Notes under the pieces: generated by a model | What the model was told of the DNA's origin: nothing | Seen by the model: the letters and a program-made list of their open reading frames with translations, nothing else | The model's database searches: none | Shown: one piece after another, positions 36,454 to 50,930 of the stretch | Position numbering within the stretch: the stretch's first letter is position 1 | Layout: each line of letters opens with the position of its first letter | Program-made: the position numbers and the translations under genes | Virus record (IMG/VR): IMGVR_UViG_3300028048_000064 | Location: 85,925-149,924 of that record | Reading direction: 5' to 3' (one strand) | DNA: 64,000 nt | Source of the DNA: a virus | Lineage: Duplodnaviria; Caudoviricetes

Positions 36454-36544
36454 TTTATAGTAGATATTAAGAGCCACTATATTTCAAATAATAGTGGCAT
36501 TTTTTTTATTAACAATTTTGTTTAATAAAAAAAAAAATAATATT

Positions 36545-37747
36545 ATGGTGGCATATGAAGACATATTTGAAGCATATTTTGAATGCAGAAAAAAGAAAAG
36601 AGGTAAAAAAACTTCTTTAGAGTTTGAAATGAGTTATGAGGCAGAATGCGTATCTTTAGCAAATGAAATAAATAATCGTACATATGAGATTGGTACATCT
36701 ATAGCATTTTTTGTGCAAAGACCAAAGAAAAGAGAAGTCTTCGCCGCCAATTTTAGAGACCGTGTTGTCCATCATTGGTTAGCGTTAAGGCTTGAACCTT
36801 TATTTGAAAATTTGTTTATTGAAGACACATATAGTTGCAGAAAAGATAAAGGTACGCAATATGGCATTAAATGTTTAAAAGAAAAAATTGAACATTTAAG
36901 TAATAATTATACTGAAGATTGTTATGTTTCAAAATTTGATTTACAAGGCTTTTTCATGTCAATTGACAAGGAAATTCTTTGGACAAAATTAAAACACTTT
37001 ATAGAAGAAAACTACAAAAACACTGTTGATTTTGATGATGTATTATGGGTAACAGAAAAAATAGTCAAGCATTGTCCGGAGAAAAACTGTATAAAACGTT
37101 CTCCTGAAAGTTGGTGGATTGGTTTCCCCGAAGACAAGTCATTATTTACTTGTGGTGAAGGGAAAGGCCTTCCAATTGGCAATTTAACATCTCAACTATT
37201 TGCTAATTTTTATATGCATGAATTTGATGCAATGATGGTAGAAAAATTTGGAGACGGGTATGGCAGATATGTTGATGACTTTTTCATAATTGCTAAAGAT
37301 AAACAAGAGATATTGAATTTTATAAATCCAATGAAAAAGTTTCTTTTTGAAAGACTGCATGTAAAGCTTCATCATAAAAAGATGTATTTGCAGCATGGGT
37401 CAAAAGGTGTTAAATTCATTGGGGGTGTTGTCAAACCAAAACGTATTTATACGGGTAATGAAACCATAACCAACTTCTGTAATGCCATTGATGACATTAA
37501 TAAAAATTATCGTAAATATACAATTGAAGACATTGTATGCCGTCTTAATAGTTATTTTGGTTTTTTGAGACACACTAAAAGCTTTAATATAAGAAAAAGA
37601 ATGTTTTTAAAACTTAATTTAAAAGTTACTAGTAAGCTTTATTGCAGAGGCTTTTACGAAAGTGTTGTAATTAAAAAACAGTTTAAAAAGAAAAATAAAT
37701 TAAAAAATAAGATAAGAAGTTTAATAAAGAATAGTGTTGAATTTTAA
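36545..37747 (+). CDS. DGR reverse transcriptase
   Basis: KREVFAANFRDRVVHH, YSCRKDKGT, DLQGFFMSI, GLPIGNLTSQLFAN, RYVDDF; ATG 36545 is the likely start. Confidence 0.95.
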   Translation: MVAYEDIFEAYFECRKKKRGKKTSLEFEMSYEAECVSLANEINNRTYEIGTSIAFFVQRPKKREVFAANFRDRVVHHWLALRLEPLFENLFIEDTYSCRKDKGTQYGIKCLKEKIEHLSNNYTEDCYVSKFDLQGFFMSIDKEILWTKLKHFIEENYKNTVDFDDVLWVTEKIVKHCPEKNCIKRSPESWWIGFPEDKSLFTCGEGKGLPIGNLTSQLFANFYMHEFDAMMVEKFGDGYGRYVDDFFIIAKDKQEILNFINPMKKFLFERLHVKLHHKKMYLQHGSKGVKFIGGVVKPKRIYTGNETITNFCNAIDDINKNYRKYTIEDIVCRLNSYFGFLRHTKSFNIRKRMFLKLNLKVTSKLYCRGFYESVVIKKQFKKKNKLKNKIRSLIKNSVEF

Positions 37748-37795: not shown

Positions 37796-38077
37796 ATGAA
37801 ACAGAAAATACTAATTAACGAAAAACAGTTGCATAACATAGTAAAAAGAACTGTGAATAATGTCTTGAAAGAATGGGACGATGTTAATGATGAGTCATAT
37901 CGTGAAAAAACGTTTATTGACGATTTATATAATATACGTGCATATATTGATGCTGCAATAGAGGATGCTGAAAAAGGTAAATATACGCAAGAGAATGGAA
38001 GCTGGTGGCTAAAGCGTTTATATGATAATTGCAAGAGCTTTATCAGTAATTATGATAAGGTTTTTAATTTTTCTTAA
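37796..38077 (+). CDS. Hypothetical protein (INE..L..IVK..V..VLKE N-terminal motif)
   Basis: 93 aa, preceded by TATTTAT. Confidence 0.55.
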   Translation: MKQKILINEKQLHNIVKRTVNNVLKEWDDVNDESYREKTFIDDLYNIRAYIDAAIEDAEKGKYTQENGSWWLKRLYDNCKSFISNYDKVFNFS

Positions 38078-38468
38078 AAAAACTTGATACTTTTTGAAAA
38101 CTACTCTATATTTATTTTTAAAATTAACCAAATAAAAATGCAGAAATCTTACATCAGCGCATCAGCAAGCAGACAATGGCTTCAGGGAACCACAACAAGT
38201 TGTTCTCCGATTAATAGTGCGTTGTACGATAATTTTGTGCCAGCATTTGAACATGGTTTAGATTATGATAAAATTGAAAAGGGTATAAAGCAGCGAAAAA
38301 AGAAAATATTAAATGTAGCCGCATAGAAACATTCCGATTTAAAACTCAATATATTTTCCCCAAAGCTGTGATGAAGACCCTAAAAAAGTAAAAATCACGG
38401 CTTTTTTATATTATAATAAGGTGTATTCCTTAAAAAACATTAAATGGGATAAAAAAGTTGAGAAAATA

Positions 38469-38500
38469 TTTGGATATTTCAAAATTAGTTAGTACCTTTG
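38469..38500 (+). promoter_or_regulatory. Bacteroidota-type promoter heading the tRNA/ncRNA island
   Basis: TTTG-N20-TACCTTTG. Confidence 0.75.
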
Positions 38501-38803
38501 CATCGCAATTCAGAAATAATACTTCTGATAAAGCGAAAAACGGAACAATGAGGCAGAAATACCGAATGTAAGTTTCCAAAAAGAGTTCTTTGACATATTG
38601 GGACAACAAAATAAAGCAAAAAAATCAATGCGGAGAGGATTGGTGAAAAACCACATTCATTTTTGTCTATAAGGTGACGAATTGGGGTCAGGTAGTCAGT
38701 AATTACAAGCCCACCTTACGGGATGAGCCTATAAACAAACAAAATGAATTAGTTCAGTAAATATAAGATAGAAATATCTAACAGAATTCCAAATTGGTGA
38801 AAT

Positions 38804-38873
38804 GCGTCTTTGGTGTAATGGTTGCATATCTGATTTCCAATCAGAAGGACAGGTTCAATTCCTGAAGACTGCT
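38804..38873 (+). tRNA. tRNA-Gly(TCC), acceptor stem bulged (possibly degenerate)
   Basis: TCTGA-TTTCCAA-TCAGA anticodon arm; CAGG-TTCAATT-CCTG T arm. Confidence 0.65.
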
Positions 38874-38878
38874 CTCTT

Positions 38879-39332
38879 TTGCATATCATAGGTAGTTTCT
38901 TCAAAATTCGGTGGAAATCCTTCCCTTCAAACCTGCAATTTATAATGTGTGGCTTAAGTATGGCGGAGGAACCACAACACTAATCAATAATGTGCAAGGA
39001 TAATACCGAGTTAAATTGAGATAATGACCTCCTTAATTGGACTGGGAAAGTTAAAAGCTTTTTATCTTATAGTACCTAAGTTGAAATTTATATAGTAGAA
39101 AAGCGGAGCACGTGTGAATCGGAGGTAACCAGTTCTAGTAGAAGCACTTCATCGTGTGGGCTGGGCATAAATGAGGAGATACTACTATGTAACTTGCAAG
39201 AATTTCAATAAGGTAATTTCAGACTACAACAAACAAAGAATAGAGGAATAGCAATTTGCTATAAACTCCACTGTCAACTGACAGGAAGTAGGCTTTATTG
39301 TACAAACCACTTTGTTTGGCTATGATATGCAA
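38879..39332 (+). ncRNA. Group-I-intron-derived structured RNA, no exons
   Basis: 13-bp closing helix TTGCATATCATAG/CTATGATATGCAA; P4-P6-like core shared with 44681-45030. Confidence 0.5.
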
Positions 39333-39348
39333 TCTTTAGAAAATATAT

Positions 39349-39638
39349 AGAACAAGTACAGACCACTGAGTAGGAACTGGGGAAGTGATAGGTAAATGCT
39401 AGCTTCATATTTATCATGTAGACGGACTCAAAGCAGTACCGACAGCCCAGTGAAAGGTGTTGGTTAGGATAAGGAGTTATCCAATACGTGAAGAGCAGCG
39501 TATTTCGTGAGAAGCCATAAGCAGGAACACAACAAATGCCGTAAAACAGCGCAAGTGCCTAATAGCGGGTTTCCTGATTAAATCTGAATAGATGATAAAA
39601 GGTTGCAAAAGTCTGTACCTCGTAAATTTACTTGTTCT
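39349..39638 (+). ncRNA. Unknown ~290-nt structured RNA
   Basis: Closing helices AGAACAAGTA/TACTTGTTCT and GTACAGAC/GTCTGTAC; GC-enriched, no credible ORF. Confidence 0.45.
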
Positions 39639-39645
39639 TTTGAAT

Positions 39646-39717
39646 GCTTGGATAGCTCAGAGGCAGAGCATCGCACTGTTAATGCGAGGGTCGGGATATC
39701 GTAATTCTCTCCAAGCG
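39646..39717 (+). tRNA. tRNA-Asn(GTT), atypical T loop
   Basis: TCGCA-CTGTTAA-TGCGA; acceptor GCTTGGA/TCCAAGC. Confidence 0.8.
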
Positions 39718-39861
39718 CAAAATATTTTTGTATTAAAAACTCCGAGGGTTGGAAGATGGTTGGACTTACGGCAAATGCTAGGAACCTGATGAACCGTAAG
39801 TCAAAGGTGTGTTGTAGGAGTTGCAGGTGAAACGGACAACAGTGTAGGAGTTTTTTTATAT

Positions 39862-40019
39862 GTGGCAGTAACTCAGTTGGTAGAGTGCCGGACTGAATAC
39901 AGAGTAAACTGAAAAATCAAACTTCGTATTGGTTGAGTGGCTGAAACTTTTAAACATTGGTTCGAATCCAATATACGAAGCAAATCCGGTTGTCGGTGGT
40001 TCAAATCCACCCTGCCGCA
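39862..40019 (+). tRNA. tRNA-Phe(GAA) interrupted after position 36 by an 85-nt insert (39898-39982) containing a tRNA-like module
   Basis: Joining 39862-39897 to 39983-40019 gives a canonical cloverleaf with CCGGA-CTGAAAA-TCCGG. Confidence 0.8.
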
Positions 40020-40097
40020 CATTTATATGAAAAAAAAACGTTCGAAACTTGTTTATTCAACTATTTATTAGTATATTTGCAATATATTAGTAAAAAA

Positions 40098-41144
40098 ATG
40101 AAAATGATTGATATTACAAGCGACGAAAACAAGAGAGAAATTTACAAATTATTTGATTCTTTTAATAAAAAAGAAGACATATACAATTATTTTGGAATAA
40201 GTCATAATAGCTATGGTGTTAAGTATGTTAATGCTATTGCATTAGAGATTAATTTTGATTTAAATATTTATCATAAAAGACGTTTTCCGGAAAGATTTTG
40301 TTTAAATTGTGGAAAAAAATTAAAAAAAGGACAAAAGAAATTTTGTGGCCATTCTTGTTCAGCCTCATATAATAATGCTACAAGTGCAAAAGTTGTTAAT
40401 AAGAAGAAAAAACAAGTAAAAAGTCGGGTAAACAAACAAAATAAATGTAAAGTATGTGGAAAAATAGATTGTTTACATACAGGCGTTTGTAATCATCATT
40501 CTTTAAATTGGTTTGATAATCTTATATATTTCGGTTTTGATAAAACGAAGTTAGGAACTGATGGCGTTTTTAATGAATATGAAAATGTAAAAAAGAAAAT
40601 TTCAGATGAATATAAAAATGGTTTGTCTGTATCTGCAATCAAAGAAAAATATAATTATCAGGGTTCAACTGAACGTCTTGTTCATGTTATGAAAAACATG
40701 GGAATTAATTTACGTTGTTTATCTGATGCTTTGCGTAAAGCCATTAGCGAAAAACGTTGTAAATTGCCAGAAGTTATGAAACAATTTAATTATGGGTGGC
40801 ATAATACATGGGATGGATACAAAGTTTTTTATCGCAGTTCATATGAATATGATTTATGCAAATATTTTGATGACAGAAAAATACACTATGAAATGGAAAA
40901 TTTAGTAATTGAGTATTTTGACACCATTTTAAATAAAAAGCGTTATGCGTTACCAGATTTTTATATTGAAAAAGAGAATAAAATTATAGAAGTTAAATCA
41001 AGAGTGACATTTGTTAAACAGAATATGATAGATAAAATGAAACGTTATATAGAGTTAGGGTATGATGTTTTATTAAATTATGAGCATAAAATGTATACCT
41101 TTGATGAAATGCTTAAAATTGAAGAATATAAGTATAAGATTTAA
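40098..41144 (+). CDS. Free-standing homing-type endonuclease, Zn fingers + C-terminal PD-(D/E)XK domain
   Basis: CLNCG..FCGHSC; YRSSYE...LPDFYI...IIEVKS; upstream ORF-track extension overlaps tRNA-Phe, so ATG 40098 is preferred. Confidence 0.75.
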   Translation: MKMIDITSDENKREIYKLFDSFNKKEDIYNYFGISHNSYGVKYVNAIALEINFDLNIYHKRRFPERFCLNCGKKLKKGQKKFCGHSCSASYNNATSAKVVNKKKKQVKSRVNKQNKCKVCGKIDCLHTGVCNHHSLNWFDNLIYFGFDKTKLGTDGVFNEYENVKKKISDEYKNGLSVSAIKEKYNYQGSTERLVHVMKNMGINLRCLSDALRKAISEKRCKLPEVMKQFNYGWHNTWDGYKVFYRSSYEYDLCKYFDDRKIHYEMENLVIEYFDTILNKKRYALPDFYIEKENKIIEVKSRVTFVKQNMIDKMKRYIELGYDVLLNYEHKMYTFDEMLKIEEYKYKI

Positions 41145-41151
41145 ATAATTT

Positions 41152-41350
41152 GGGAGGTTATTCCGTAAGTGGTAGCGGGGCTGACTGTATACAGAGTAAA
41201 CTGAAAATCAAATTTTAGTTTGGCTGAGTGGTTGAAAGCTAAGGCACTAAGTGCTGAGTGAATTTACACTCACATTCGCCGGTTCGAATCCGACAACTAA
41301 AACAAATCAGCTGCTTAACGGCTCGGGTGGTTCGACTCCATCACCTCCCA
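41152..41350 (+). tRNA. tRNA-Tyr(GTA) interrupted after the anticodon by a 115-nt insert (41190-41304) containing a tRNA-like module
   Basis: Joined exons give GCTGA-CTGTAAA-TCAGC, long V arm, GGTGG-TTCGACT-CCATC, acceptor GGGAGGT/ACCTCCC. Confidence 0.8.
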
Positions 41351-41378
41351 CATAATTTTTCATAACTAATGTTTCTGA

Positions 41379-41675
41379 TTGAATATGTTACAGAAAATTA
41401 AAGAAAAATATAAACGATACAAAAGGTTAAAAGGACTTAGAACATATCGTAAGTTAAGAAACACTTTTGATACTGAATATGGAAAATTCCTTGCTTATAT
41501 GTATTATGTCGGTGGTGAAGGAAAATTAGAAGACTTATATAAGTTATTTAATCCTGAAATAATTAGACGTGCTTGGTTTGCCGGATATTTTAACGTCTAT
41601 GATAAAAATTTAGGGTGGAAAGACCATCTGTACAATACAGATGTATATAAAAAATATGATAATGGAAAAAAATAA
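41379..41675 (+). CDS. Hypothetical protein
   Basis: ~97-aa ORF within the tRNA island. Confidence 0.5.
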   Translation: MNMLQKIKEKYKRYKRLKGLRTYRKLRNTFDTEYGKFLAYMYYVGGEGKLEDLYKLFNPEIIRRAWFAGYFNVYDKNLGWKDHLYNTDVYKKYDNGKK

Positions 41676-41908
41676 AATTCAGACCCGATGTTTTGCTGTG
41701 TCAGAGTAAATAAACAGTAGGTGGGATATGGTATGTCACCTTGATAGAAGAAACAGAGAGAAACTGTGCTAATATCAGAATAAACCATTAATACTAGTTA
41801 AGGGTAATGAGGTTTTGTAGGTAAGGAAACCGCCGCACTAAGTTTGGAAACAATAAATAAGAACTAAGTGAAATGGTAAGTTGGTTTATGGATTTCCAAC
41901 GTAAATTT

Positions 41909-41981
41909 AGCCCATTCATCTAGCGGCCTAGGATACATGCCTCTCACGCATGTCACAGCAGTTCAAATCTGCTATGGGTTA
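41909..41981 (+). tRNA. tRNA-Glu(CTC)
   Basis: CATGC-CTCTCAC-GCATG; full cloverleaf. Confidence 0.85.
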
Positions 41982-41992
41982 CAAATTATTTT

Positions 41993-42069
41993 GGGGGCGT
42001 AGTTCAGTTGGCTAGAACATCTGCTTTGCAAGCAGGGGGTCGTGGGTTCAAGTCCCACCGTCTCCACCA
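41993..42069 (+). tRNA. tRNA-Ala(TGC)
   Basis: TCTGC-TTTGCAA-GCAGG; encoded CCA. Confidence 0.92.
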
Positions 42070-42092
42070 ACTTGATTAACAAATGGTTATAC

Positions 42093-42166
42093 AGATGCTT
42101 AGTTCAGTTGATTAGAATATCGGTCTCCAAAATCGAGGGTCGGAGGTTTGAGTCCTTCAGCATCTG
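42093..42166 (+). tRNA. tRNA-Trp(CCA)
   Basis: TCGGT-CTCCAAA-ATCGA. Confidence 0.85.
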
Positions 42167-42172
42167 CAAAAA

Positions 42173-42245
42173 CGGGATATGAGGTTTAATGGTAGCCTGC
42201 GTGCTTTGGGAGCATGTCGAGTCAGTTCGAGTCTGGCTATCCCGA
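42173..42245 (+). tRNA. tRNA-Pro(TGG)
   Basis: CGTGC-TTTGGGA-GCATG. Confidence 0.85.
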
Positions 42246-42252
42246 CAAATAT

Positions 42253-42325
42253 GGTCGGTTCGACAAGTTGGTTAAGTCGTCGCCCTTTCAAGGCGGAGTC
42301 ACGGGTTCGAGTCCCGTACCGACTA
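42253..42325 (+). tRNA. tRNA-Glu(TTC)
   Basis: TCGCC-CTTTCAA-GGCGG. Confidence 0.9.
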
Positions 42326-42336
42326 CTTTCATTTTC

Positions 42337-42408
42337 GCCTCCTTGGGTGAGTGGCCGAGCCACCGGTCTGCAAAACCGGGTACCCCTGTTCGAGTCAGGG
42401 AGGAGGCT
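42337..42408 (+). tRNA. tRNA-Cys(GCA)
   Basis: CCGGT-CTGCAAA-ACCGG; U discriminator. Confidence 0.9.
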
Positions 42409-42423
42409 CATTAAATTATATTT

Positions 42424-42495
42424 GCCGGTGAAGCACAATGGTTGTGCAACTGATTTGTAATCAGTAGGCTGTGGGTTCGACCCCCATCACCGGCT
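42424..42495 (+). tRNA. tRNA-Thr(TGT)
   Basis: ACTGA-TTTGTAA-TCAGT. Confidence 0.88.
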
Positions 42496-42503
42496 CAAAG
42501 AAT

Positions 42504-42588
42504 GGCTTCATGGGGGAATTGGTAGACCCGGCAGACTTAAAATCTTCTGGCCAGTATGGCCGTCCGGGTTCGAGTCCCGGTGAAGCTA
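42504..42588 (+). tRNA. tRNA-Leu(TAA)
   Basis: AGA-CTTAAAA-TCT; long V arm. Confidence 0.85.
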
Positions 42589-42620
42589 CTGAATAATGGG
42601 TATTTAGCTCAGTGATAACT

Positions 42621-42694
42621 GTTGGCATAATTCAGTAGGTTAGAATGTCACGCTGATACCGTGAATGTGGGTGGTTCGAGTCCATCTGCCAACA
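42621..42694 (+). tRNA. tRNA-Ile(GAT)
   Basis: TCACG-CTGATAC-CGTGA. Confidence 0.85.
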
Positions 42695-42702
42695 CTTTTT
42701 AT

Positions 42703-42777
42703 AGTGCGTTAGTTCAGTAGGTTTAGAATGCCACACTGTCACTGTGGAGGTCGCCGGTTCGAATCCGGTACGCACTG
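42703..42777 (+). tRNA. tRNA-Asp(GTC)
   Basis: CCACA-CTGTCAC-TGTGG. Confidence 0.9.
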
Positions 42778-42796
42778 CTTATAATATTTAAATTTT

Positions 42797-43546
42797 ATGG
42801 AATATAATGTAGATGATATTAAAAAGTCAAAACCAAATCAAAGTTTTGAATTTATTTGTAAAAATTGTGGCTGTTCATTTTATCGTACAAAACGTGACAT
42901 TTCTAAAAATAAATATGAACTTCCAATGTTTTGTAGTTGTAAATGCAGAGGTGAATGGAAAAGTAAAAATCGTACCGTAAATGTTAAATGCAAATATTGT
43001 GGAAAAGAATTTAAAATTTTACTCAGTGATTATAATAGAAGCAAAACAAAACATTTTTTCTGTTGCCAATCTCATTCGGCATCGTATACTAACAGATATA
43101 GAAATAACGATAAAAAAATGAAAGATGTAGTATGGAAAGGTGGTAAACATAAAAAAGGATATAATGCTTGCCCTCGCTGTGGTAAACTAAAATCTTATAC
43201 CGCTGAATTATGCAGAAAATGTTGCATTGAGTTGAAACATGAAAAAATAAAATTAAAGACCCTTGGCTATTATATAGACGGACATAAATATTTGACTATT
43301 AAATGTAGTGAAATAAGAAAGGACGCTAGAAGAACAATTGAAAACAGTAATAAATTAAAACATTGCTGTTTTTGTGGAAACAATCATGAATTTGATGAGA
43401 TTCTTGACGTACATCATATAAAAGGCATATTAAAATTTCCTAGTTCTGCCACTATTGGTGAAATTAATAATATAGATAATTTAATGTGGGTTTGCCCTAG
43501 CCATCATAAGATGTTAGAGAAAGGTTTAATTACACTGACTCCGTAG
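42797..43546 (+). CDS. HNH homing endonuclease with multiple Zn fingers
   Basis: CKNCG, CKYCG, DVHHIKG...NNIDNLMWVCPSHH; stop codon lies inside tRNA-Lys. Confidence 0.85.
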   Translation: MEYNVDDIKKSKPNQSFEFICKNCGCSFYRTKRDISKNKYELPMFCSCKCRGEWKSKNRTVNVKCKYCGKEFKILLSDYNRSKTKHFFCCQSHSASYTNRYRNNDKKMKDVVWKGGKHKKGYNACPRCGKLKSYTAELCRKCCIELKHEKIKLKTLGYYIDGHKYLTIKCSEIRKDARRTIENSNKLKHCCFCGNNHEFDEILDVHHIKGILKFPSSATIGEINNIDNLMWVCPSHHKMLEKGLITLTP

Positions 43547-43609
43547 CTCAGTTGGTAGAGCACAACACTTTTAATGTTGGGGTCCCGGGTCCGAGTCCCG
43601 GCGGGGTCA
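43537..43609 (+). tRNA. tRNA-Lys(TTT)
   Basis: CAACA-CTTTTAA-TGTTG. Confidence 0.88.
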
Positions 43610-43621
43610 CTGAATTAATAT

Positions 43622-43694
43622 GGGACAGTTGGCCGAGTGGTTAGGTGCATGTTTGTGGCACATGTTTACGTTGGTTCGAACCCAACACTGCCCC
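43622..43694 (+). tRNA. tRNA-His(GTG)
   Basis: CATGT-TTGTGGC-ACATG; G-1:C73. Confidence 0.82.
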
Positions 43695-43701
43695 CATAAT
43701 T

Positions 43702-43774
43702 GCACCATTGGTGTTAGTGATTAGCATATCAGACTTCCAATCTGAAGGGGACAGTTTGAATCTGTTATGGTGCT
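43702..43774 (+). tRNA. tRNA-Gly(TCC)
   Basis: TCAGA-CTTCCAA-TCTGA. Confidence 0.82.
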
Positions 43775-43781
43775 CTAATTT

Positions 43782-43853
43782 GCAGTATTCGTATAGTGGT
43801 TATTACACCTGCTTGCCATGCAGGAGACGAAGTTTCGATTACTTTATACTGCT
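43782..43853 (+). tRNA. tRNA-Gly(GCC)
   Basis: CCTGC-TTGCCAT-GCAGG. Confidence 0.82.
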
Positions 43854-43974
43854 CTAATAATAGAAATTGACGATAGAGGTCTCAATGTTAAGTCCGGTAA
43901 CGGATAAAAGAAGTCTTGTTGGTTAAGGAAACCAGATTCCCTTGAAAGTACGTCCGTCAATTTTTTATATGAAC

Positions 43975-44158
43975 CTTGCAAGAAAACCCCATCCTTCAGG
44001 GTAGGGATGAATTGCAAAAAAATTCTTCGTAGGGGCATCTACGAATTGGCAAGCGGGAGTGAGACCATTGAGACTACGTGTCAAAGGGCATCCCACGCAA
44101 GCGTTGTTACACGAAGTGGCCAAGAATCCCTCAATCTTTAGGTGGGGGAGTATGTCAA
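43975..44158 (+). mobile_element. Non-autonomous IS200/IS605-type miniature element (left-end hairpin + omegaRNA-like right end), copy 1
   Basis: LE CCCCATCC-TTCA-GGGTAGGG; RE GAATCCC..TTTAGG..GGGGAGTATGTCAA; paralogous to 49837-50019. Confidence 0.75.
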
Positions 44159-44645
44159 GAACTAACAGAAGGAAACACCCGTATGTACTAGCGGGAGAAG
44201 TTACCGTAGGCAACCAATCTGAGGTTGAGATACATATCCGATTTGTATTGTAATTGGAGGTGGTTATTCATTAGTATGGATGTGTAGGATTAGAGTTGTA
44301 CGGGATAGTGGAATGTATGTTTTTAAGTATAAGTTGAAATTAATTCAGCAATGTTGATGCAATGAAGATTATCATTGAAATCTGAGTTTATGCAGCGGTG
44401 GCCATGTAATTGCATCAGTAGTGAGTCAAACGACACTATGGTCAAATTGTTGAATTTACTTGCAAGGATTTCGACTTTTTTTGATATGGTTTTACTCTGA
44501 CTTCGAGTACTGGCAATTCGGCAGAAAGCATTTATATGTTGTTAGATGCTATAGAGTGATAATGGTGGGAGTCCATGATGTCGTTTTGTGTTATCTACTG
44601 CTTGGAGAACTCTAATTAAAACTATTTTTGCTTTATTATATAAAT

Positions 44646-45038
44646 GAAAACATAAGCCTAATTGGTAAGGCAGTGGTCTTGAATTTAATTCGAGTGCTAT
44701 GGCGAGAAATCCCATAGTAGAATCTCCCTAAAACGGCGGAAGTCCTCAGAAGTGGGCATAAGTTGTGTGAGATATGTACATTCACACCACCTAAACAATA
44801 ATGGTGGAGGATAATACCGTGCTAAATTGAGAGACTATACCTTCAAATAACTTTGATGTTCATAAGGTTAAGTTTGGGTAAACAAGTTAGCCTCATAAAA
44901 GTGTCGAGAGTATATAGGAGATACCTAAGTTGAAATTTATAATGAAACCTAGAAGTGCGAACATCCAAGAAAGGTCAGTAGCTCGGTTGATTTATATCTC
45001 ATGAGAATTTTAATATGGTAAAAATAAACTGTCTTCCA
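44646..45038 (+). pseudogene. tRNA (Ser-like body) pseudogene with truncated group I intron after U34
   Basis: 5' exon GAAAACATAAGCCTAATTGGTAAGGCAGTGGTCTT; P1 CTTGAA/TTCGAG with U-G; P3 ATCTCC/GGAGAT; P4; R-like GTCGAGAGTATA; only acceptor 3' strand TGTCTTC remains. Confidence 0.6.
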
Positions 45039-45046
45039 TTTATAAT

Positions 45047-45130
45047 GGCGGGTTGCCGGAACGGTAACGGGCCTGACTTGAAATCAGAGGCATCCTTCGG
45101 GGTGAGTGGGTTCGACTCCTACACCCGCCG
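45047..45130 (+). tRNA. tRNA-Ser(TGA)
   Basis: CTGA-CTTGAAA-TCAG; long V arm with TTCG loop. Confidence 0.85.
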
Positions 45131-45220
45131 CACATACTTTATTTTTTCTAAAAAAAAAACGTTCGAAATTTTGTTTTTCCGCTATTTATTAGTATATTTA
45201 CAATATACATAAATAACAAA

Positions 45221-46117
45221 ATGAGAAAACGTAATATTATAGACATTAGTACAGAGGAAAAGAAAAAAGAAGTTTACGATATTTTAAATTCGTTATCAAG
45301 TAAAAATCAAATTCATGAGTATTTTGGTATATCAGATAATAAATGTGGTTCTGATTATGTTAAACAAATTGCTTCAAAAATTGGATTTGATTTAAACATT
45401 TATAAAGAAAGAAAAAAGAAACCTATTAAATATTGTAAGCAATGTGGTAATGAAATCACAAGTAAAACAGCAAATGAATTTTGTTGTAGTTCTTGTGCCG
45501 CAACGTACAATAATGAACACCGTTCAAAAGATGTTTATGAAAATATTGGTAACAAATTAAGAAAACATCCTAAAAAGGTATGTAAAGAAAAATATTGCGA
45601 AATATGTGGTAAAAAATTAGAAGGCCATCAGCATAAATATTGCTCTGAGAGTTGTAGGAATCGAAACAAATATTTAACGCAAGGACAAGAATTTATTTGT
45701 CAAGAATGTGGTAAAATATTTAAAAGTAGAAATCCAAATAGGAAGTTTTGTTCAAATGAATGTTGTGCTAAACATAGAGGTAAAGAAACTATTGACAAGT
45801 GGATTAAAGGCGAATATTTTTTAGACCCAAATTCAAAATTACCTAAATATATAAGATTGTTTCTTTATGAAAGAGCACATTATAAATGTGAAGAATGTGG
45901 CTTTGAAGGTTATAATAAGAGAACAAATAATACTATTTTACAAATTCATCATATAGACGGAAATTGTGGTAATAACTGTAGAGAAAATCTGAAAGTTTTA
46001 TGCCCTAATTGCCACGCTATGACTGAAAATTATATGGCACTCAATAAAGGAAAAAGTGCAAGGTCTAAAAGATATAAAGGAGAGAGCAACCAACAAGGAG
46101 TTGGGTCTGACTGCTAA
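45221..46117 (+). CDS. HNH homing endonuclease with Zn-finger repeats
   Basis: CxxCG..FCS..C repeats; LQIHHIDGN..NN...NLKVLCPNCH; 3' end overlaps tRNA-Ser(GCT). Confidence 0.88.
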   Translation: MRKRNIIDISTEEKKKEVYDILNSLSSKNQIHEYFGISDNKCGSDYVKQIASKIGFDLNIYKERKKKPIKYCKQCGNEITSKTANEFCCSSCAATYNNEHRSKDVYENIGNKLRKHPKKVCKEKYCEICGKKLEGHQHKYCSESCRNRNKYLTQGQEFICQECGKIFKSRNPNRKFCSNECCAKHRGKETIDKWIKGEYFLDPNSKLPKYIRLFLYERAHYKCEECGFEGYNKRTNNTILQIHHIDGNCGNNCRENLKVLCPNCHAMTENYMALNKGKSARSKRYKGESNQQGVGSDC

Positions 46118-46164
46118 TCAGAACGTGCTATTTGTGGCATAGGTATCGTAAACCTGCCTCTCCG
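46079..46164 (+). tRNA. tRNA-Ser(GCT), atypical D/T loops
   Basis: TCTGA-CTGCTAA-TCAGA; acceptor GGAGAG/CTCTCC, G discriminator. Confidence 0.7.
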
Positions 46165-46197
46165 CAGAGTTTAACATTAAAGCAGAAAGGAAAAATT

Positions 46198-46866
46198 ATG
46201 GAAAACAGTAAATACCCAAGAACGTTTCACGTCCCGTTCTCAGAAGGGTTACAGAATGATGACAGACGTGTTGATGACGATTGGTTTTCCTATTTGAAAG
46301 GAAAGGAACTGATTCTTAGCGAAAAATTAGACGGTGAAAACAGTTCTATATCTCGTTATGGTGTATTTGCTCGTTCTCATGCAGCACCTACAAGGAATCC
46401 TTGGTCAATAAACCTATGGGGAAATGACGGCCTTTATTGGAGAATTAAGGATTTGATTGGTGAAGATGAAATGATTTACGGTGAGAACTTATATGGTGTT
46501 CATTCGATTGAATATAATAGGTTGAAAGAATATTTCCATATGTTTGCCGTAAGGGATGAAGAGAAATGGTATTCTTGGGATGATGTTTCAGAAATGGCAC
46601 AGATTCTTGATTTGCCGACTGTTCCTGTATTGGAAAGACGTTCATTTGACACAGAAGATGAATTAAAGGAACACGTATTGTATTGGATGACGCAAGGCAG
46701 TAGGTATGGTGATACTATTGAGGGTGTTGTTATCCGTAATGTTGATAGTTATCCGATTGATGAGTTTTGTCATAATGTCGTGAAGTATGTACGTAAGAAT
46801 CATGTGCAAACTGACCAATTTTGGGCAAAAAATTGGAGAAAAGCGAAAATAACAGAATATTATTAA
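46198..46866 (+). CDS. ATP-dependent RNA ligase (Rnl2-like nucleotidyltransferase)
   Basis: KYPRTFH, motif I SEKLDGEN, III IYGEN, IV EGVVIR, V KYVR. Confidence 0.85.
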   Translation: MENSKYPRTFHVPFSEGLQNDDRRVDDDWFSYLKGKELILSEKLDGENSSISRYGVFARSHAAPTRNPWSINLWGNDGLYWRIKDLIGEDEMIYGENLYGVHSIEYNRLKEYFHMFAVRDEEKWYSWDDVSEMAQILDLPTVPVLERRSFDTEDELKEHVLYWMTQGSRYGDTIEGVVIRNVDSYPIDEFCHNVVKYVRKNHVQTDQFWAKNWRKAKITEYY

Positions 46867-46976
46867 TAACTTTTAACAAAAAATATTTGTAGATTCTTTG
46901 CACTGTCAAACGATGACAAAGTGTTCTTTTTATATATTTATATAATAAGAAAGGAGAAATAGAAAACACATCAAAG

Positions 46977-47444
46977 ATGATTATTGGTTCATATAATAGC
47001 ATGAGTTATCTTCAACCAGCAAATAAATGGTTGAAATATATTAACAAGTGGTTTATAAGGTATCAAGAAAAGACAATTGAGCAACAATATGCCGAAGGTA
47101 TAAGACTATTTGACATAAGGCTATTTGTTAACAAATATGGCAAGTTATGCTTTAAATGTCGTTTTGTTGAATATATTATATTCAGTTTATATGGTGTGTT
47201 TAATTTCCTTAATAAACAAGGTGATTGCTACGTAAGATTAACACTTGAAGAAACACTTGTTGATGCCGGTAGTAATAATATAAAGAATGTTGAGGAAAAA
47301 TTCATATGGGCTTGCAAATCATTACCAGAGATTTATCCAAATATTAAATTCTTTGGTGGAAAAAGAGAATTTGATGGAAAATTGCTGTATGAATTTAAAA
47401 ATGAATTGAAAGATTATGAATATAGACTTTTAACGTTTATATAG
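46977..47444 (+). CDS. PI-PLC X-box-like protein, probably catalytically altered
   Basis: GSYNSMSY (usual His replaced by Tyr), QEKTIEQQYAEGIRLFDIR. Confidence 0.6.
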   Translation: MIIGSYNSMSYLQPANKWLKYINKWFIRYQEKTIEQQYAEGIRLFDIRLFVNKYGKLCFKCRFVEYIIFSLYGVFNFLNKQGDCYVRLTLEETLVDAGSNNIKNVEEKFIWACKSLPEIYPNIKFFGGKREFDGKLLYEFKNELKDYEYRLLTFI

Positions 47445-47777
47445 AAAGACAAAAATGGAGAGTAAGGTGGCGCACTCCGCCGGAATAAAACGTCACGCTT
47501 ATAAGTCTGAAATTTTAAATACATATTAGGGTACAGAAATGACCGGGCGTAGATTTCAGTCTAAGTTCGTAGGAGGACTTCGAAATTGTATTTATTCTTC
47601 GAAGAATTTCAGATTTTTAGAAAATAGTTAGGAGATGCACCTAATGACTCAAGCATGCTGATATTTTGTTATGGTGACTTGCAAGATTTCTTAACTATTT
47701 TTGTTTTTGGAAAGTGAAAATAACAGAATTTTATTAGTTTTAAGTTATGGAGGAATTAAAAGACTAAGTAATGGTAT

Positions 47778-47851
47778 TGGGGTGTCGTATAGTCCGGTTA
47801 GTACACATGACTTTGACTCATGTAGCACCAGTTCAAATCTGGTCGCCCCAA
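47778..47851 (+). tRNA. tRNA-Gln(TTG)
   Basis: CATGA-CTTTGAC-TCATG. Confidence 0.88.
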
Positions 47852-47857
47852 CTATTT

Positions 47858-47931
47858 TAGAGATTGGTGTAAAATTGGTAACACGTGACACTCTGGATGT
47901 TAAGTTATCAGTCCGAGTCTGGTATCTCCAA
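47858..47931 (+). tRNA. tRNA-Gln(CTG)
   Basis: TGACA-CTCTGGA-TGTTA; one acceptor mismatch. Confidence 0.72.
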
Positions 47932-47938
47932 CTAATTT

Positions 47939-48022
47939 GGCTTCATGGTGGAATTGGTAGACACGAATGTCTCAAAAGCATTTGTCCGAGAGGATGTAAG
48001 GGTTCAAGTCCCTTTGAAGCCA
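47939..48022 (+). tRNA. tRNA-Leu(CAA)
   Basis: AATGT-CTCAAAA-GCATT; long V arm. Confidence 0.88.
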
Positions 48023-48024
48023 CT

Positions 48025-48149
48025 AAGCAAATAGTCATTTAATGGCAAGAACGGGGCGCATGGAGGAATATTGATGGAAACCATTGATACACAGTTAATG
48101 TGATGTTGCCAATCGGTGATGTTGGGTTCGATTCCTGACCTATTTGTTT
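48025..48149 (+). ncRNA. tRNA-like RNA with anticodon arm replaced by ~65 nt
   Basis: Acceptor-like AAGCAAATAG/CTATTTGTTT, D loop TTTAATGGCAA, T arm GTTGGG-TTCGATT-CCTGAC. Confidence 0.55.
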
Positions 48150-48209
48150 AATTTTAGTATTGAAAAACTGTTAAACTATATTTATATTAATATTTAAAGT
48201 TTAATTGTT

Positions 48210-48542
48210 ATGAGTTCAATATTAGATGAATATAAGAGATACACGGATGACAGTTTACTAACAGAGGAAGAAAAAGCCAAAGTTAGGGAGTTAGTAAATG
48301 ACTATGAGGCCTTAAATATGGATTTATTTATCCGTAAGATTGGTGGAATGGAACGTATTGAGGAAATGAAACGAATTAATGACGTTGCCGATGGCATGTA
48401 TGTTGTTGGCGGCAAGGTTGTGCATAAATCAAGGCCAAATAGTAATGCTTCTATTTCAAATAGACAGGAAGACCTGGATGAGTGGAAAAAAGGCTTCATG
48501 GAAGGTTTTGAGGAAGCATACAAGAGACTGAATATGAGATAA
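48210..48542 (+). CDS. Hypothetical protein
   Basis: 110-aa ORF preceded by TATTTAT. Confidence 0.55.
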   Translation: MSSILDEYKRYTDDSLLTEEEKAKVRELVNDYEALNMDLFIRKIGGMERIEEMKRINDVADGMYVVGGKVVHKSRPNSNASISNRQEDLDEWKKGFMEGFEEAYKRLNMR

Positions 48543-48558
48543 ATAATTTTTTATATAT

Positions 48559-48957
48559 GGGGATAACAGGCATTTGACAGCAAGTATGAAATGGTCTGTA
48601 AGCATGCAGTGTGAAGACTATTACACTTAAATCAATTTGGTCGAACAATTAATTGGCGAAACAACTTACGCTCTCGCTGCCTAATCGAAGTACAGTAGGT
48701 TACTGGCTTAATTCCCTTACAAGGTGAGGGAACGAGACATCACTTAATGAGTTATTTTCTGAGACTTGTTAGTATAGTGGTGCAGGAAAATCAGAAATAG
48801 TTGGTCTATGCCTTGATGGATTGATGAAAATTAAAAGGATAAGAATGCAATTTGGTAGTTCAAGTCGTGTTGCATTATGAAAATCAAAATTGAACTAAGC
48901 ATGTAGAAAATAGATGGTTTCCTTGTTTGGACGAGGTTTCGATTACCTCTATCTCCA
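48559..48957 (+). ncRNA. ssrA: tmRNA
   Basis: 5' GGGGATAACAGGCATTTGAC, 3' GGACGAGGTTTCGATTACCTCTATCTCCA, tag ORF 48655-48684 GETTYALAA*. Confidence 0.93.
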
Positions 48958-48968
48958 CAAATTAGGAT

Positions 48969-49054
48969 GCCGTTGTACCCGAACTGGTATAGGGGACAGT
49001 CTAAGGAACTGTTGCAACGGAAGTTGCGTGAGGGTTCGACTCCCTCCAACGGCA
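48969..49054 (+). tRNA. tRNA-Leu(AAG)
   Basis: ACAGT-CTAAGGA-ACTGT; long V arm; A discriminator. Confidence 0.82.
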
Positions 49055-49064
49055 CAAACATGAT

Positions 49065-49138
49065 GCCCCCATAGCTCAGTTGAATAGAGCACGATACTTC
49101 TAATATCGGGGTCACAGGTTTGAATCCTGTTGGGGGTA
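49065..49138 (+). tRNA. tRNA-Arg(TCT)
   Basis: CGATA-CTTCTAA-TATCG. Confidence 0.9.
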
Positions 49139-49177
49139 CAAAATTTTCTTGAAATTTACAATTTTTAACAAAAAATA

Positions 49178-49209
49178 TTTGGTAGTTTCAAAAATAATTA
49201 GTATCTTTG
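49178..49209 (+). promoter_or_regulatory. Bacteroidota-type promoter heading the Y-RNA-like array
   Basis: TTTG-N20-TATCTTTG. Confidence 0.75.
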
Positions 49210-49269
49210 CAACCGAATTAATGAAGAAAGCGTTCTTTAATATATTTATAATGTAGAAAACAAAAAAAT

Positions 49270-49353
49270 ACGAATAGTGATGTGAGAGTTACTTCGATAC
49301 AATATAATGTGGATATTTTCAATCAAAACTCACTCTCGCTGTTTTTCTTTCGT
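49270..49353 (+). ncRNA. Y-RNA-like unit 1 (stem only, no tRNA module)
   Basis: TAGTGA-TGTGAGA-GTTACTTCGA ... ACTCTCGC..TTTTCTTTCG. Confidence 0.55.
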
Positions 49354-49371
49354 TATTTTTTTAAAATATAA

Positions 49372-49516
49372 GTTGGTAGTGAAGTTAAGGGTTACTTCGA
49401 TTAATTATTGGTTCGAATCCAATAGATTCCGTTTTGGGAATTTTGGCGAAATGGTATACGCGAAACACTTGAAATGTTTTTTAGACAGAAACTCACCCTT
49501 GCTGTGATTCTCCAAT
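49372..49516 (+). ncRNA. Y-RNA-like unit 2, YrlA-type circularly permuted tRNA module
   Basis: Conserved stem encloses T arm (TATTGG-TTCGAAT-CCAATA), loop-closed acceptor (GATTCC/GGAATT), D arm and anticodon-like arm, in that order. Confidence 0.7.
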
Positions 49517-49525
49517 TTTTTATAC

Positions 49526-49665
49526 GGGCGTAAAGTTTAGAAAAAAGAAATTTACTGAAGGTATTTTCTTTGATTTTTCAATAGTGAACTTTACAGTTAC
49601 TTCGAATAGGTTAAAACGTTATCATGTCAAGATAAAGATTCTTGGTTCGACTCCAAGTACGCCCG
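49526..49665 (+). ncRNA. Y-RNA-like unit 3: tRNA-Asp(GTC) with the Y stem inserted (strand-swapped) in its D loop
   Basis: Acceptor GGGCGTA/TACGCCC-G, TTATC-ATGTCAA-GATAA; insert ~49541-49606 carries TAGTGA..GTTACTTCGA. Confidence 0.65.
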
Positions 49666-49670
49666 CAAAC

Positions 49671-49803
49671 AACAAGTAGTGACAGAAGAGTTACTTCGAT
49701 TTTTTAGCTAAGTAGGTTATAGCGCAATTCTGTTAAAATTGATGTCCGAGGTTCGAGTCCTCGAAGAATCTATTTTGTAATACTCTTCTAATTTTCTCTT
49801 GTT
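49671..49803 (+). ncRNA. Y-RNA-like unit 4 enclosing a complete tRNA-Asn(GTT)-like cloverleaf (49698-49771)
   Basis: AACAAG..AGAAGAGT / ACTCTTCT..CTTGTT stem; CAATT-CTGTTAA-AATTG. Confidence 0.7.
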
Positions 49804-49836
49804 TTTCTTTTGAAAGTAGTATATATTTATATACGT

Positions 49837-50019
49837 CTTGCAAGAAAACTCCATCCTTCAGTGTGTGGATGAATTGCAAAAAAAAATTCTTCGTAGGGGC
49901 ATCTACGAATTGGAAAGCGGGTGGAAGACCAGTGAGGCTCCGGCCAAAGGGCATCCCACGAAAGCGTCTAGTACGAAATGTCCAAGAATCCCCTCACTTT
50001 AGGGAGGGGAGTATGTCAA
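49837..50019 (+). mobile_element. Non-autonomous IS200/IS605-type miniature element, copy 2
   Basis: Paralogue of 43975-44158 (shares TTCTTCGTAGGGGCATCTACGAATTGG and GTATGTCAA end). Confidence 0.75.
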
Positions 50020-50028
50020 ATAAGAAAT

Positions 50029-50165
50029 ATGCAGTAGTGACGTGACTGTTACTTCGATAACATTTAGACAAGTGGTTAAGTCGCAATTTTTTGGTAATTG
50101 AGAACGCCGGTTCAATTCCGGCAGTGTTGTAAACAATAGCAAACAGTCACAAATTTTCTCTGTAT
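50029..50165 (+). ncRNA. Y-RNA-like unit 5 enclosing a complete tRNA-Gln(TTG)-like cloverleaf (50058-50130)
   Basis: GTGACTGTT/AACAGTCAC stem; CAATT-TTTTGGT-AATTG; GCCGG-TTCAATT-CCGGC. Confidence 0.7.
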
Positions 50166-50172
50166 TATTTAG

Positions 50173-50337
50173 TGGGCGGTAGTTCAGTGGTAGAACACGA
50201 GTCTCGTCTCTGTAGTTTAATTGGCAGAACACAAATTTTTATGATTTGGACATGAGGTCGATACTCATCGGAGGCACAAAGTTTTAAGAACTTACAAAAT
50301 AATCTCGAAATCCCTGGTTCGAGTCCAGGTCGCCCAA
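50173..50337 (+). tRNA. tRNA-Met(CAT)-like gene interrupted between C34 and A35 by a 93-nt insert (50206-50298) that begins with a full tRNA-like cloverleaf
   Basis: Joined exons give CGAGT-CTC|ATAA-TCTCG; acceptor TGGGCGG/TCGCCCA; T arm CCTGG-TTCGAGT-CCAGG. Confidence 0.7.
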
Positions 50338-50435
50338 CAAAAATATGTTGTCCCAATATATCGTAGGGAGCATGCAATTGTCTATTAATATAGGCTTTTG
50401 CATATTTTATTTTATATATAAAGATTTATTATTAA

Positions 50436-50807: not shown

Positions 50808-50827
50808 TATTTTTTAACGGTATTTCT

Positions 50828-50858
50828 TTTGAAGTATCGTTTTTTTGTAGTATATTTG
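50828..50858 (+). promoter_or_regulatory. Bacteroidota-type promoter
   Basis: TTTG-N19-TATATTTG. Confidence 0.6.
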
Positions 50859-50930
50859 CAAAAAATTAAGGAGACACAAGGGAAAGTGTGTGTGTTTATA
50901 TATATATAACAACATTAATCAAATATATTT

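Follow-up and report, generated by a model that had tools for sequence, protein, structure and literature searches.

How can a phage obtain tRNA-Phe and tRNA-Tyr from genes in which the anticodon loop is interrupted by another sequence that is itself shaped like a transfer RNA (tRNA)? This question is raised by a stretch of DNA of 64 kilobases (kb), hereafter the window, which is the final part of a 149.9-kb virus record (IMGVR_UViG_3300028048_000064; 34% GC, estimated to be ~41% complete) and carries an array of roughly 27 tRNA genes and a transfer-messenger RNA gene between about 38.8 and 50.3 kb. Phe and Tyr are present in the record as split genes only, with no other copies. In the present study, we describe the two inserts as introns of a fixed plan, in which a hairpin-bearing leader is followed by a tRNA-like body and a single unpaired C, and we propose a route by which proteins may excise them.

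Two split genes and their splice rule

The two genes, their parts and the neighboring tRNA-Asn gene that is needed to read them are as follows, with lengths in nucleotides (nt) and base pairs (bp).

39646..39717, plus strand: tRNA-Asn(GUU), uninterrupted, 50.8 bits with the Rfam tRNA model; intron-less counterpart of the split short-variable-arm 'GUA/GUU' genes
39862-40019, plus strand: whole tRNA-Phe(GAA) gene with an 85-nt insert, 52.4 bits with the Rfam tRNA model across the insert
39862..39896, plus strand: tRNA-Phe(GAA) exon 1, positions 1-35, ending ...CCGGA-CUGA (sequence, Rfam tRNA model and rule-based parse)
39897..39921, plus strand: Phe intron leader, composed of A, UA, the hairpin and the A-rich linker, AAAAAUCAAA; a repeat of 41189-41212 with one extra A
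39922..39980, plus strand: Phe intron tRNA-like body, with an 8-bp stem CUUCGUAU/AUACGAAG that includes the -1:73 pair; D-like and T arms present, anticodon arm absent
39981..39981, plus strand: terminal C of the Phe intron, unpaired and followed by the 3' splice site (rule in 35 of 35 cases, register from the tRNA-Asn cases)
39982..40019, plus strand: tRNA-Phe exon 2, beginning with A36 (AAA-UCCGG...) and ending with A73, then CA
41152-41350, plus strand: whole tRNA-Tyr(GUA) gene of the bacterial type (long variable arm), interrupted by a 115-nt insert and recognized by manual parsing
41152..41188, plus strand: tRNA-Tyr exon 1, to U35 (sequence and rule-based parse)
41189..41212, plus strand: Tyr intron leader AUACAGAGUAAACUGAAAAUCAAA (sequence repeat and rule-based parse)
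41213..41302, plus strand: Tyr intron tRNA-like body, with an 8-bp stem UUUUAGUU/AACUAAAA, a D arm, a long extra arm and a T arm
41303..41303, plus strand: terminal C of the Tyr intron (rule-based parse)
41304..41350, plus strand: tRNA-Tyr exon 2, beginning AAA-UCAGC... and ending with A73, then CA

ARAGORN reported neither a tRNA-Phe nor a tRNA-Tyr in the window. Its intron mode was dropped due to an arbitrary placement of introns that produced wrong identities (Phe as Cys, Lys as Glu), and a rule-based parser was used in its place.

Both inserts begin with TACAGAGTAAACTGAAAA(A)TCAAA, and the shared leader is 24-25 nt long. Its 18-mer, TACAGAGTAAACTGAAAA, had been noticed in a sequence-only reading of the window, and this observation was borne out: the 18-mer has two exact copies in the window, at 39898 and 41190, both directly after the anticodon, and none elsewhere in the 150-kb record. 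With up to three mismatches allowed, 0.19 chance matches are expected, and none of 100 shuffles reached three.

The same reading had described the tRNA-like bodies behind the two leaders as different from one another, which is correct. The Phe body, with the T arm AUUGG-UUCGAAU-CCAAU, has no anticodon arm, and the Tyr body has a long extra arm and, instead of an anticodon arm, a hairpin with a 3-nt loop; the latter body scores 34 bits with the Rfam tRNA model at 41214-41302 (gathering score 29). In the minimum free energy fold of the Phe precursor, the outer cloverleaf is retained. The inner acceptor stems had also been found to differ in sequence and still to pair, and this pairing extends further than was thought: the body stem is 8 bp long, since position -1 always pairs with position 73. 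Among 19 distinct 8-bp stems, pairing covers 151 of 152 positions, and all 19 contain the -1:73 pair, in four pair types. A paired position 73 and the lack of a 7-nt anticodon loop set the inner bodies apart from genuine tRNAs.

The plan common to these inserts was formulated as a rule, according to which the intron is an A, the hairpin, the A-rich linker, the tRNA mimic with its 8-bp stem, and one C. It was applied by script to 35 split genes, which come from the window, a related 235-kb viral contig (G001) and 31 metagenome sites; in all 35, the anticodon arm regained a 5-bp stem, a loop of 7 nt and a sensible anticodon once the intron was removed. Within the window, the intron boundary slides by one A. 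The register was resolved using short-variable-arm split genes that read ...CUGU-A[UACAG...]C-U-AAUCCGU and match the tRNA-Asn(GUU) of the window (39646-39717) in the D arm, in an unusual T arm and in G73; the comparison was made with the gene at L129:1464-1620 in G001. Of the four intron-less IMG/VR genes with an identical anticodon arm, all have GUU and none has GUA. Since the base that follows the terminal C is U only in these Asn-like genes (A in all others), the counterparts of which read GUU, that base is exon position 36 (37 in Lys, Trp and Arg).

The introns thus resolved run from A to C, at 39897-39981 in Phe and 41189-41303 in Tyr, 1 nt to the left of the boundaries drawn earlier, and the predicted spliced junctions join GGACUGA to AAAUCCGG in Phe and GACUGU to AAAUCAGC in Tyr. 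The inserts had been taken to end with a discriminator and CA, and the register from the tRNA-Asn genes shows instead that they end with the stem and a C. The caveat attached to the former view, namely that a cut by RNase Z would leave two extra nucleotides on the 3' exon, largely dissolves, because the final A (U in tRNA-Asn) is exonic, although one C remains. An insertion at 36/37 had been stated for both genes. The site is indeed common to Phe and Tyr, but it is 35/36, inside the anticodon, in these two and in Asn, and 36/37 in Lys, Trp and Arg. Since the site varies in this manner, the splice sites are set by the intron rather than by a distance along the body of the host tRNA.

The leader hairpin, its relatives and its mobility

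The Phe leader forms a hairpin of CAG (39900-02) and CUG (39909-11) with the loop AGUAAA, and the commoner U variant of the leader reads UACAG-AGUAAA-CUGUA, with a 5-bp stem. Other split tRNA genes of the same contigs carry variant leaders with the stems ACAAG/CUUGU, UAAUGG/CCAUUA, AUCAG/CUGAU and ACGG/CCGU and with the loops AGUAAA, AGAGAA or AAGGAA, each followed by a 7-12-nt A-rich linker. In an alignment of 14 leaders, 49 of 49 cells were paired and three of the four pairs had changes on both sides; none of 500 shuffles was as good, and slid registers collapsed. Since the stem changes in the variant leaders are compensatory, the covariation argues for selection on the hairpin at the level of RNA structure. 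Hairpins of 4 bp with this class of loop were not enriched in this phage (23 found, 15 expected).

A scan of metagenomes for the leader returned 34 loci, and, together with the window and G001, 40 copies of the leader. It had been asked whether the leader always follows an anticodon. Of the 40 copies, 35 interrupt a tRNA gene at its anticodon loop (Phe, Tyr, Asn-type, Lys, Trp, Arg and one mutated Phe), two are free-standing just upstream of a tRNA-Asn gene and three are in other contexts. The 35 split genes amount to 27 distinct introns with at least 10 unrelated middle parts. The 8-bp stem and the T arm are present in 27 of these 27, and the bodies, which are 45-105 nt long and have interchangeable middles, have only the generic top half of a tRNA in common. 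The proposal that the leader is a selected RNA element that marks the 5' boundary is supported by this spread over 35 split genes, six identities and at least 10 unrelated types of body, together with the covarying hairpin.

The two free-standing copies next to tRNA-Asn (L146:5016-5160 and L166, minus strand, from 2458) consist of a leader and a body, end with the stem and U rather than the stem and C, and stand 4 nt upstream of the tRNA gene. The full 21-nt leader is also found at L134:514-534 and L144:1539-1559, where it precedes an ATG by 9 nt (..UCAUCGACCUC-AUG-AAG-GAG..) in a contig of higher GC content, and these copies are either a chance match or another mRNA leader. A different class of interrupted, tRNA-shaped gene, with a CGAAGCG...GCUUCG acceptor, is present at L151:13898-14035, L154:2502-2638, L155:539-676, L157:1667-1801, L162:530-665, L164:1197-1330 and L165:655-793; its insert of ~55-60 nt replaces the anticodon loop and contains a GCUUACA...UGUAAGC hairpin and no tRNA-like body.

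Comparisons of close relatives show that the introns are mobile. In G001, the exons of tRNA-Tyr are identical to those of the window at 84 of 84 positions and enclose a different intron of 84 nt, which is 91% identical to the Phe intron of the window, the differences including a compensatory replacement of A-U by G-C in the T stem. The tRNA-Phe of G001 is uninterrupted and directly adjoins tRNA-Tyr, and a third split gene with the identical leader, the Asn-type gene at L129:1464-1620, is present in that contig. Introns are thus present in Phe and Tyr and absent from Asn in the window, present in Tyr and Asn and absent from Phe in G001, and present in Phe and Asn and absent from Tyr in L136. 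All three genes thus vary between close relatives in whether they contain an intron. The exons of the split genes are under selection: they are intact across diverged lineages, and the anticodon stems of tRNA-Lys differ in a compensatory manner (UCGCA/UGCGA vs CAGCA/UGCUG).

Regarding the leader itself, its 3' half, ACUG(U/A)AAAUC(A) (39906-39919 and 41198-41210 in the window, and in all leaders), is identical over 10 nt to a spliced anticodon loop and the start of its stem, that of tRNA-Tyr for the U variant and that of tRNA-Phe for the A variant, and position 36 is A or U in nearly all interrupted tRNAs. A preference for a target site and descent from a duplicated anticodon arm are both possibilities.

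Copies of the leader in unrelated contexts had been named as a finding that would refute its proposed role, and, taken literally, such copies exist. The core of the leader, CAGAGTAAACTGAAAA(A)TCA, is present in at least 14 other viral contigs in IMG/VR, where it directly follows a stop codon and precedes a small protein gene by 37-60 nt; it is followed by an A/C-rich low-complexity spacer ((CAA)n-like) and then by the ATG of a protein of 97-158 amino acids (aa) with an invariant NPGG. A series of related ACAG-loop-CUGU hairpins was found at the same place in 80 loci encoding relatives of the NPGG protein, and, in some of these elements, the 7-nt loop pairs with a downstream segment through covarying partners (UUAGG/CCUAG, UUGGG/CCCAG and GAGU/ACUC), i.e., as a pseudoknot. 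The elements lie ~40-110 nt upstream of the start of the protein match (contigs L010, L025, L028, L063, L073, L076, L094, L107, L122-L127 and L182-L261). No match to the NPGG-gene element was found in Rfam. The hairpin upstream of these genes is an undescribed 5'-leader element, one variant of which is letter-for-letter the core of the intron leader.

The core occurs once per small-phage locus, and no protein was common to the core-bearing small phages and the intron-bearing loci at E < 1e-4 in the DNA that was compared. A search of 185,579 bacterial and archaeal species genomes returned 10 matches to the core in unrelated coding or intergenic contexts, which is about the number expected by chance and rules out a host promoter or host motif. 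We read the copies in unrelated contexts as evidence of a self-sufficient RNA signal that is not specific to tRNAs, and not as an indication that the leader is meaningless. On this reading, the hairpin is a portable RNA signal of some phages and acts most plausibly as a processing or 5'-end element.

A proposed route of excision and its alternatives

The account that we favor is protein-dependent excision by cuts of the tRNA-maturation type and a hairpin-marked cut, followed by sealing by a phage ligase, and we regard it as evenly poised between right and wrong. The introns are small (70-130 nt), mobile, protein-less elements in the anticodon loops of large-phage tRNA genes. Their fixed plan begins with a single A (or U) and a hairpin of 3-6 bp, the 6-nt loop of which is rich in purines; an A-rich linker of 7-12 nt, a mimic of the top half of a tRNA and an unpaired C follow. 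The mimic consists of an 8-bp acceptor-like stem (-1:73), a D-like arm and a T arm, with the anticodon region variable or missing. In the folded precursor, the leader hairpin and the mimic would meet the outer anticodon stem at a three-way junction, and the mimic would recruit the ordinary machinery for the maturation of tRNA ends. At the 3' splice site, after the terminal C, the cut would be the same as that which trims the N73-C-(A/U) tRNAs of this phage and would give exon 2 a 5'-phosphate. The 5' splice site, between N and AUA at the foot of the hairpin, would be cut by a hydrolytic endoribonuclease guided by the hairpin, giving exon 1 a 3'-OH; candidates are RNase P acting on the mini-helix, a host enzyme of the RNase E/G or Y type, or a phage nuclease. 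The exon halves would be held by the acceptor and anticodon stems, and the ATP-dependent ligase would join the 3'-OH to the 5'-phosphate. At the DNA level, the introns would hop between tRNA genes and replace one another at individual sites, probably helped by the free-standing endonuclease genes of the array.

Two genes within the array bear on this proposal, the second being an open reading frame (ORF) of 348 aa.

46132..46866, plus strand: ATP-dependent RNA ligase, PF09414 (Pfam E 7e-28, profile positions 2-171 of 171; PHROG RNA ligase E 4e-38)
40098..41144, plus strand: 348-aa ORF between the split genes, with a zinc-ribbon N-terminal part and a C-terminal PD-(D/E)XK, TnsA-N/DUF7487-like domain

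The ligase ORF (46132-46866) contains motif I as EKLDGEN, including the KxDG lysine, with a likely start Met at 46198; a 94% identical copy is present in G001, and the gene lies within the tRNA array in both phages. Its product is a candidate for the exon-sealing enzyme. Sequence searches of the PDB with the ligase and the 348-aa ORF returned no matches.

All of the tRNA genes of the array that were checked by eye (38804-50131) read N73-C-(A/U), with the exception of tRNA-Ala, which reads CCA, and this pattern suggests a 3' maturation that keeps or uses C74; the intron bodies share the N73-C-(A/U) 3' context. A further nested tRNA, at 50173-50338, has no leader. Its exon 1 ends with C34 (50205) and is followed by a complete inner tRNA (50206-50278, anticodon UUA), 20 nt of trailer in which AAGUU-UUAAGA-AACUU forms a hairpin, and exon 2, which starts at 50299 (AUAA...), the resulting anticodon being CAU. 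ARAGORN reports the inner tRNA as a suppressor tRNA, and this 'suppressor' may be only the cargo of an intron. The 5' splice site of this third gene coincides with the 5' end of the inner tRNA, a canonical site for RNase P. Since the mimic keeps only the determinants for RNase P, RNase Z and the CCA enzyme, the splice site falls after N73-C and before an A or U, the third gene presents an RNase P site and ligases of this family join a 3'-OH to a 5'-phosphate, as produced by hydrolytic tRNA-processing nucleases, enzymatic excision is favored. We infer the cutting nucleases, the end chemistry and the action of the ligase on these exons from the sequences.

Several points weigh against this account. 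RNA ligases are common in large phages, where they serve tRNA repair, and the presence of one is weak evidence. No CCA-adding enzyme, RNase Z-like fold or RNase E/G was found in the record of the window or in that of G001, both of which are partial. For an RNase Z that measures distance, the predicted cut is directly behind N73, the one that it must make in tRNA-His with its own 8-bp stem, and the C would then remain on exon 2. A hairpin of 3 bp is a poor substrate for RNase P, and the A-variant leaders of the window itself form only 3 bp, the 5-bp form requiring the U variant. Since unrelated phages carry the core ahead of a protein gene, the function of the hairpin is not intrinsically splicing.

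If the inserts were instead never removed, they may be selfish mini-elements or tRNA-shaped RNA carriers (two-headed mimics resembling Ro60 and Y RNA), the interrupted tRNA being lost as a decoder. A 555-aa open frame in each phage encodes a protein with a Ro60/TROVE domain (~28689-29471 in the window, i.e., 114613-115395 of the record, and 129895-130707 in G001), copies of the leader and body stand outside tRNA genes (L146 and L166), and what the body retains is precisely what RNase P and RNase Z require. We nevertheless consider this reading unlikely: removal restores a 7-nt loop and a standard anticodon that matches the other features of the tRNA in 35/35 cases (GUU with G73 and the short loop, GUA with the long arm), the exons are intact and covarying across diverged lineages, where a dead landing site would decay, and the record would be left with no other gene for Phe or Tyr. 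Less probable again is that the intron is a small ribozyme of a new kind that splices or cleaves itself, whether or not ligation follows. The highly conserved loop and linker of the leader and the compact three-way junction, which brings the splice sites together, speak for catalysis by the RNA, and small ribozymes such as the hepatitis delta virus-like theta ribozymes are known from phage tRNA regions. However, no ribozyme in Rfam (hammerhead, hepatitis delta virus-like, twister, pistol, hatchet or similar) and no group I or II intron matched positions 38000-51000 at E <=1, and bodies of 45-105 nt that share only a generic tRNA top half around interchangeable middles are difficult to reconcile with a catalytic core, for which the core of the leader, as a stand-alone 20-nt element of a 5' untranslated region before low-complexity A/C sequence, also has no room.

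The leader may also act as DNA, either as a promoter for the inner RNA or as the end or recognition site of an endonuclease or recombinase. Its identity across many tRNA hosts while the bodies vary is as expected of the end of a transposing or recombining element, its core upstream of a probably highly expressed phage gene is in a promoter-like position, and endonuclease genes are interspersed in the array. Against this are the compensatory changes that keep the hairpin in variant leaders, the occurrence of the core once per small-phage locus and, beyond the introns, nowhere in the 150 kb of this phage, unlike a class of promoters, and the lack of any recurrent signal in the 185,579 bacterial and archaeal species genomes; a role in DNA is as improbable, in our judgment, as a ribozyme. 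Splicing of the archaeal or eukaryal type, through a bulge-helix-bulge, a splicing endonuclease and joining by RtcB, is very improbable. The host phylum has RtcB, with a Bacteroides control genome positive, but there is no 4-bp helix between the flanks of the splice sites (ACAG vs GAAG or AAAA), the site is 35/36 or 36/37 and not 37/38, and neither RtcB nor the EndA family (PF01974) was found in the two partial phage records.

The 348-aa ORF is probably a free-standing homing-type DNA endonuclease. The protein itself has no match in Pfam, and its homologues have sub-threshold matches to PF24308, PF08722 and PF05367 (TnsA-N, DUF7487 and endonuclease-I type) in the aligned C-terminal part. Relatives of this ORF lie near intron-bearing tRNA-Lys genes in L135, L138, L142 and L159, and relatives are present on contigs of up to 553 kb. 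Since Phe and Tyr are adjacent in G001 without this ORF, it is an insertion in the window. Two HNH endonuclease genes lie among the tRNA genes (42797-43546 and 45221-46117), which, with the PD-(D/E)XK-like ORF, turn the array into a hotspot for free-standing endonucleases.

Other elements lie close to the split genes. A reverse transcriptase gene is located just upstream of the array (36494-37747; RVT_1 E 6e-20, PHROG reverse transcriptase E 2e-85). At 39349-39637 and 39740-39860 lie two non-coding elements that are conserved and apparently structured, with counterparts at L129:1620-1920 and 1970-2085 in G001; the first, of ~290 nt, is closed by gaacaagta/tacttgttc, and the second, of ~115 nt, ends with GGAG and a run of U. 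The ~290-nt element was considered as a reduced RNase P RNA and rejected, as Infernal searches with RF00010 found nothing in either phage record; neither of the two elements had a match in Rfam at E <=10.

Comparison with known introns and RNA-processing systems

The group I introns of tRNA genes (tRNA-Leu UAA, tRNA-fMet and tRNA-Arg) similarly interrupt anticodon loops of the bacterial type, are mobile and often have homing endonucleases nearby; however, they are typically longer than 200 nt with a P3-P9 core, whereas the present inserts are 85 and 115 nt long with a tRNA-like fold, and no match to the Rfam group I model (RF00028) was found in 38000-51000 at E <=1. As with the introns of archaea and eukaryotes, which are processed by EndA and RtcB or Trl1, enzymatic cutting and joining would apply, and the local structure of the intron sets the sites, as in archaea. 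The differences are that there is no bulge-helix-bulge here and that the predicted ends are a 3'-OH and a 5'-phosphate, not a cyclic phosphate and a 5'-OH.

A tRNA-shaped module that recruits RNase P and RNase Z and thereby defines the ends of the flanking RNAs is known from the 'tRNA punctuation' of mitochondria and from the mascRNA of MALAT1. The flanks are never re-joined in those systems, whereas they are tRNA halves that need ligation in the present case. A break in the anticodon loop is sealed by a phage RNA ligase in the tRNA repair of T4 (Pnkp and Rnl1 after PrrC), in which, in contrast, the break is damage with cyclic-phosphate ends that require a kinase-phosphatase, and the break proposed here would be programmed. 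No kinase-phosphatase of the Pnkp type turned up in our analysis, in which no search was aimed at one. We tentatively raise the possibility, to which we give somewhat less than even credence, of a third mechanistic class of tRNA intron beside group I and bulge-helix-bulge introns. Such an intron would carry its own tRNA mimic, at which the universal enzymes that trim tRNA ends would make one splicing cut, and a portable hairpin signal to mark the other, and its exons would be sealed by a phage ligase. The hairpin would then serve these phages more widely as a signal for RNA processing, in mRNA leaders too.

The closest counterparts are the 'enigmatic' tRNA introns of the Lak megaphages, anticodon-loop inserts of ~80-115 nt with no Rfam class (Devoto et al., 2019, Nat Microbiol, PMC6784885). 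In that report, one intron 'may encode a tRNA' and, for the Thr intron, 'rfam found a tRNA' (Table S6); the introns were identical across cohorts and polymorphic in presence and absence, and the excision point was offset by 1 nt from the tRNAscan call. It gave no architecture, leader, splice rule or mechanism, and a literature search found no mechanistic follow-up to it.

When the present rule is applied to the published sequences (PMC6784885, Table S6), the Phe, Gly, Thr and 'Tyr' introns of Lak read as W, a UA-hairpin, an A-rich linker, a mimic with an 8-9-bp stem, and C; the Phe intron carries ACAGAGUAAACUGU, and the hairpin stems covary in these introns too. This shared plan is a description made in the present analysis and not in that paper. 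Lak A1 encodes an Rnl2-like ligase (rnlB) and cca, and the short-variable-arm 'Tyr GUA' gene of Lak A1 and A2 is probably a tRNA-Asn(GUU). The elements of the window thus belong to the Lak-type introns, with which they share a non-group-I insert in the anticodon loop, a tRNA-like fold, the plan of hairpin, linker, stem and C, and polymorphism in presence and absence. They reside in another phage lineage, with 34% GC vs 26% in Lak, and their leader subfamily differs.

The misreading of such genes has consequences beyond the introns, because tRNA finders miss or misname them, which distorts tRNA inventories and inferences of the genetic code for large phages. With about 35 genes, the class now has a definition (hairpin, linker, 8-bp-stem mimic, terminal C and an exact splice rule), and, as concrete candidate enzymes are named, the question may be addressed with a 158-nt transcript and three or four purified proteins. 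Relative to the introns described in Lak, what is added here is the common architecture, the exact boundaries, a variable site that may lie inside the anticodon, the autonomy of the hairpin and a testable mechanism.

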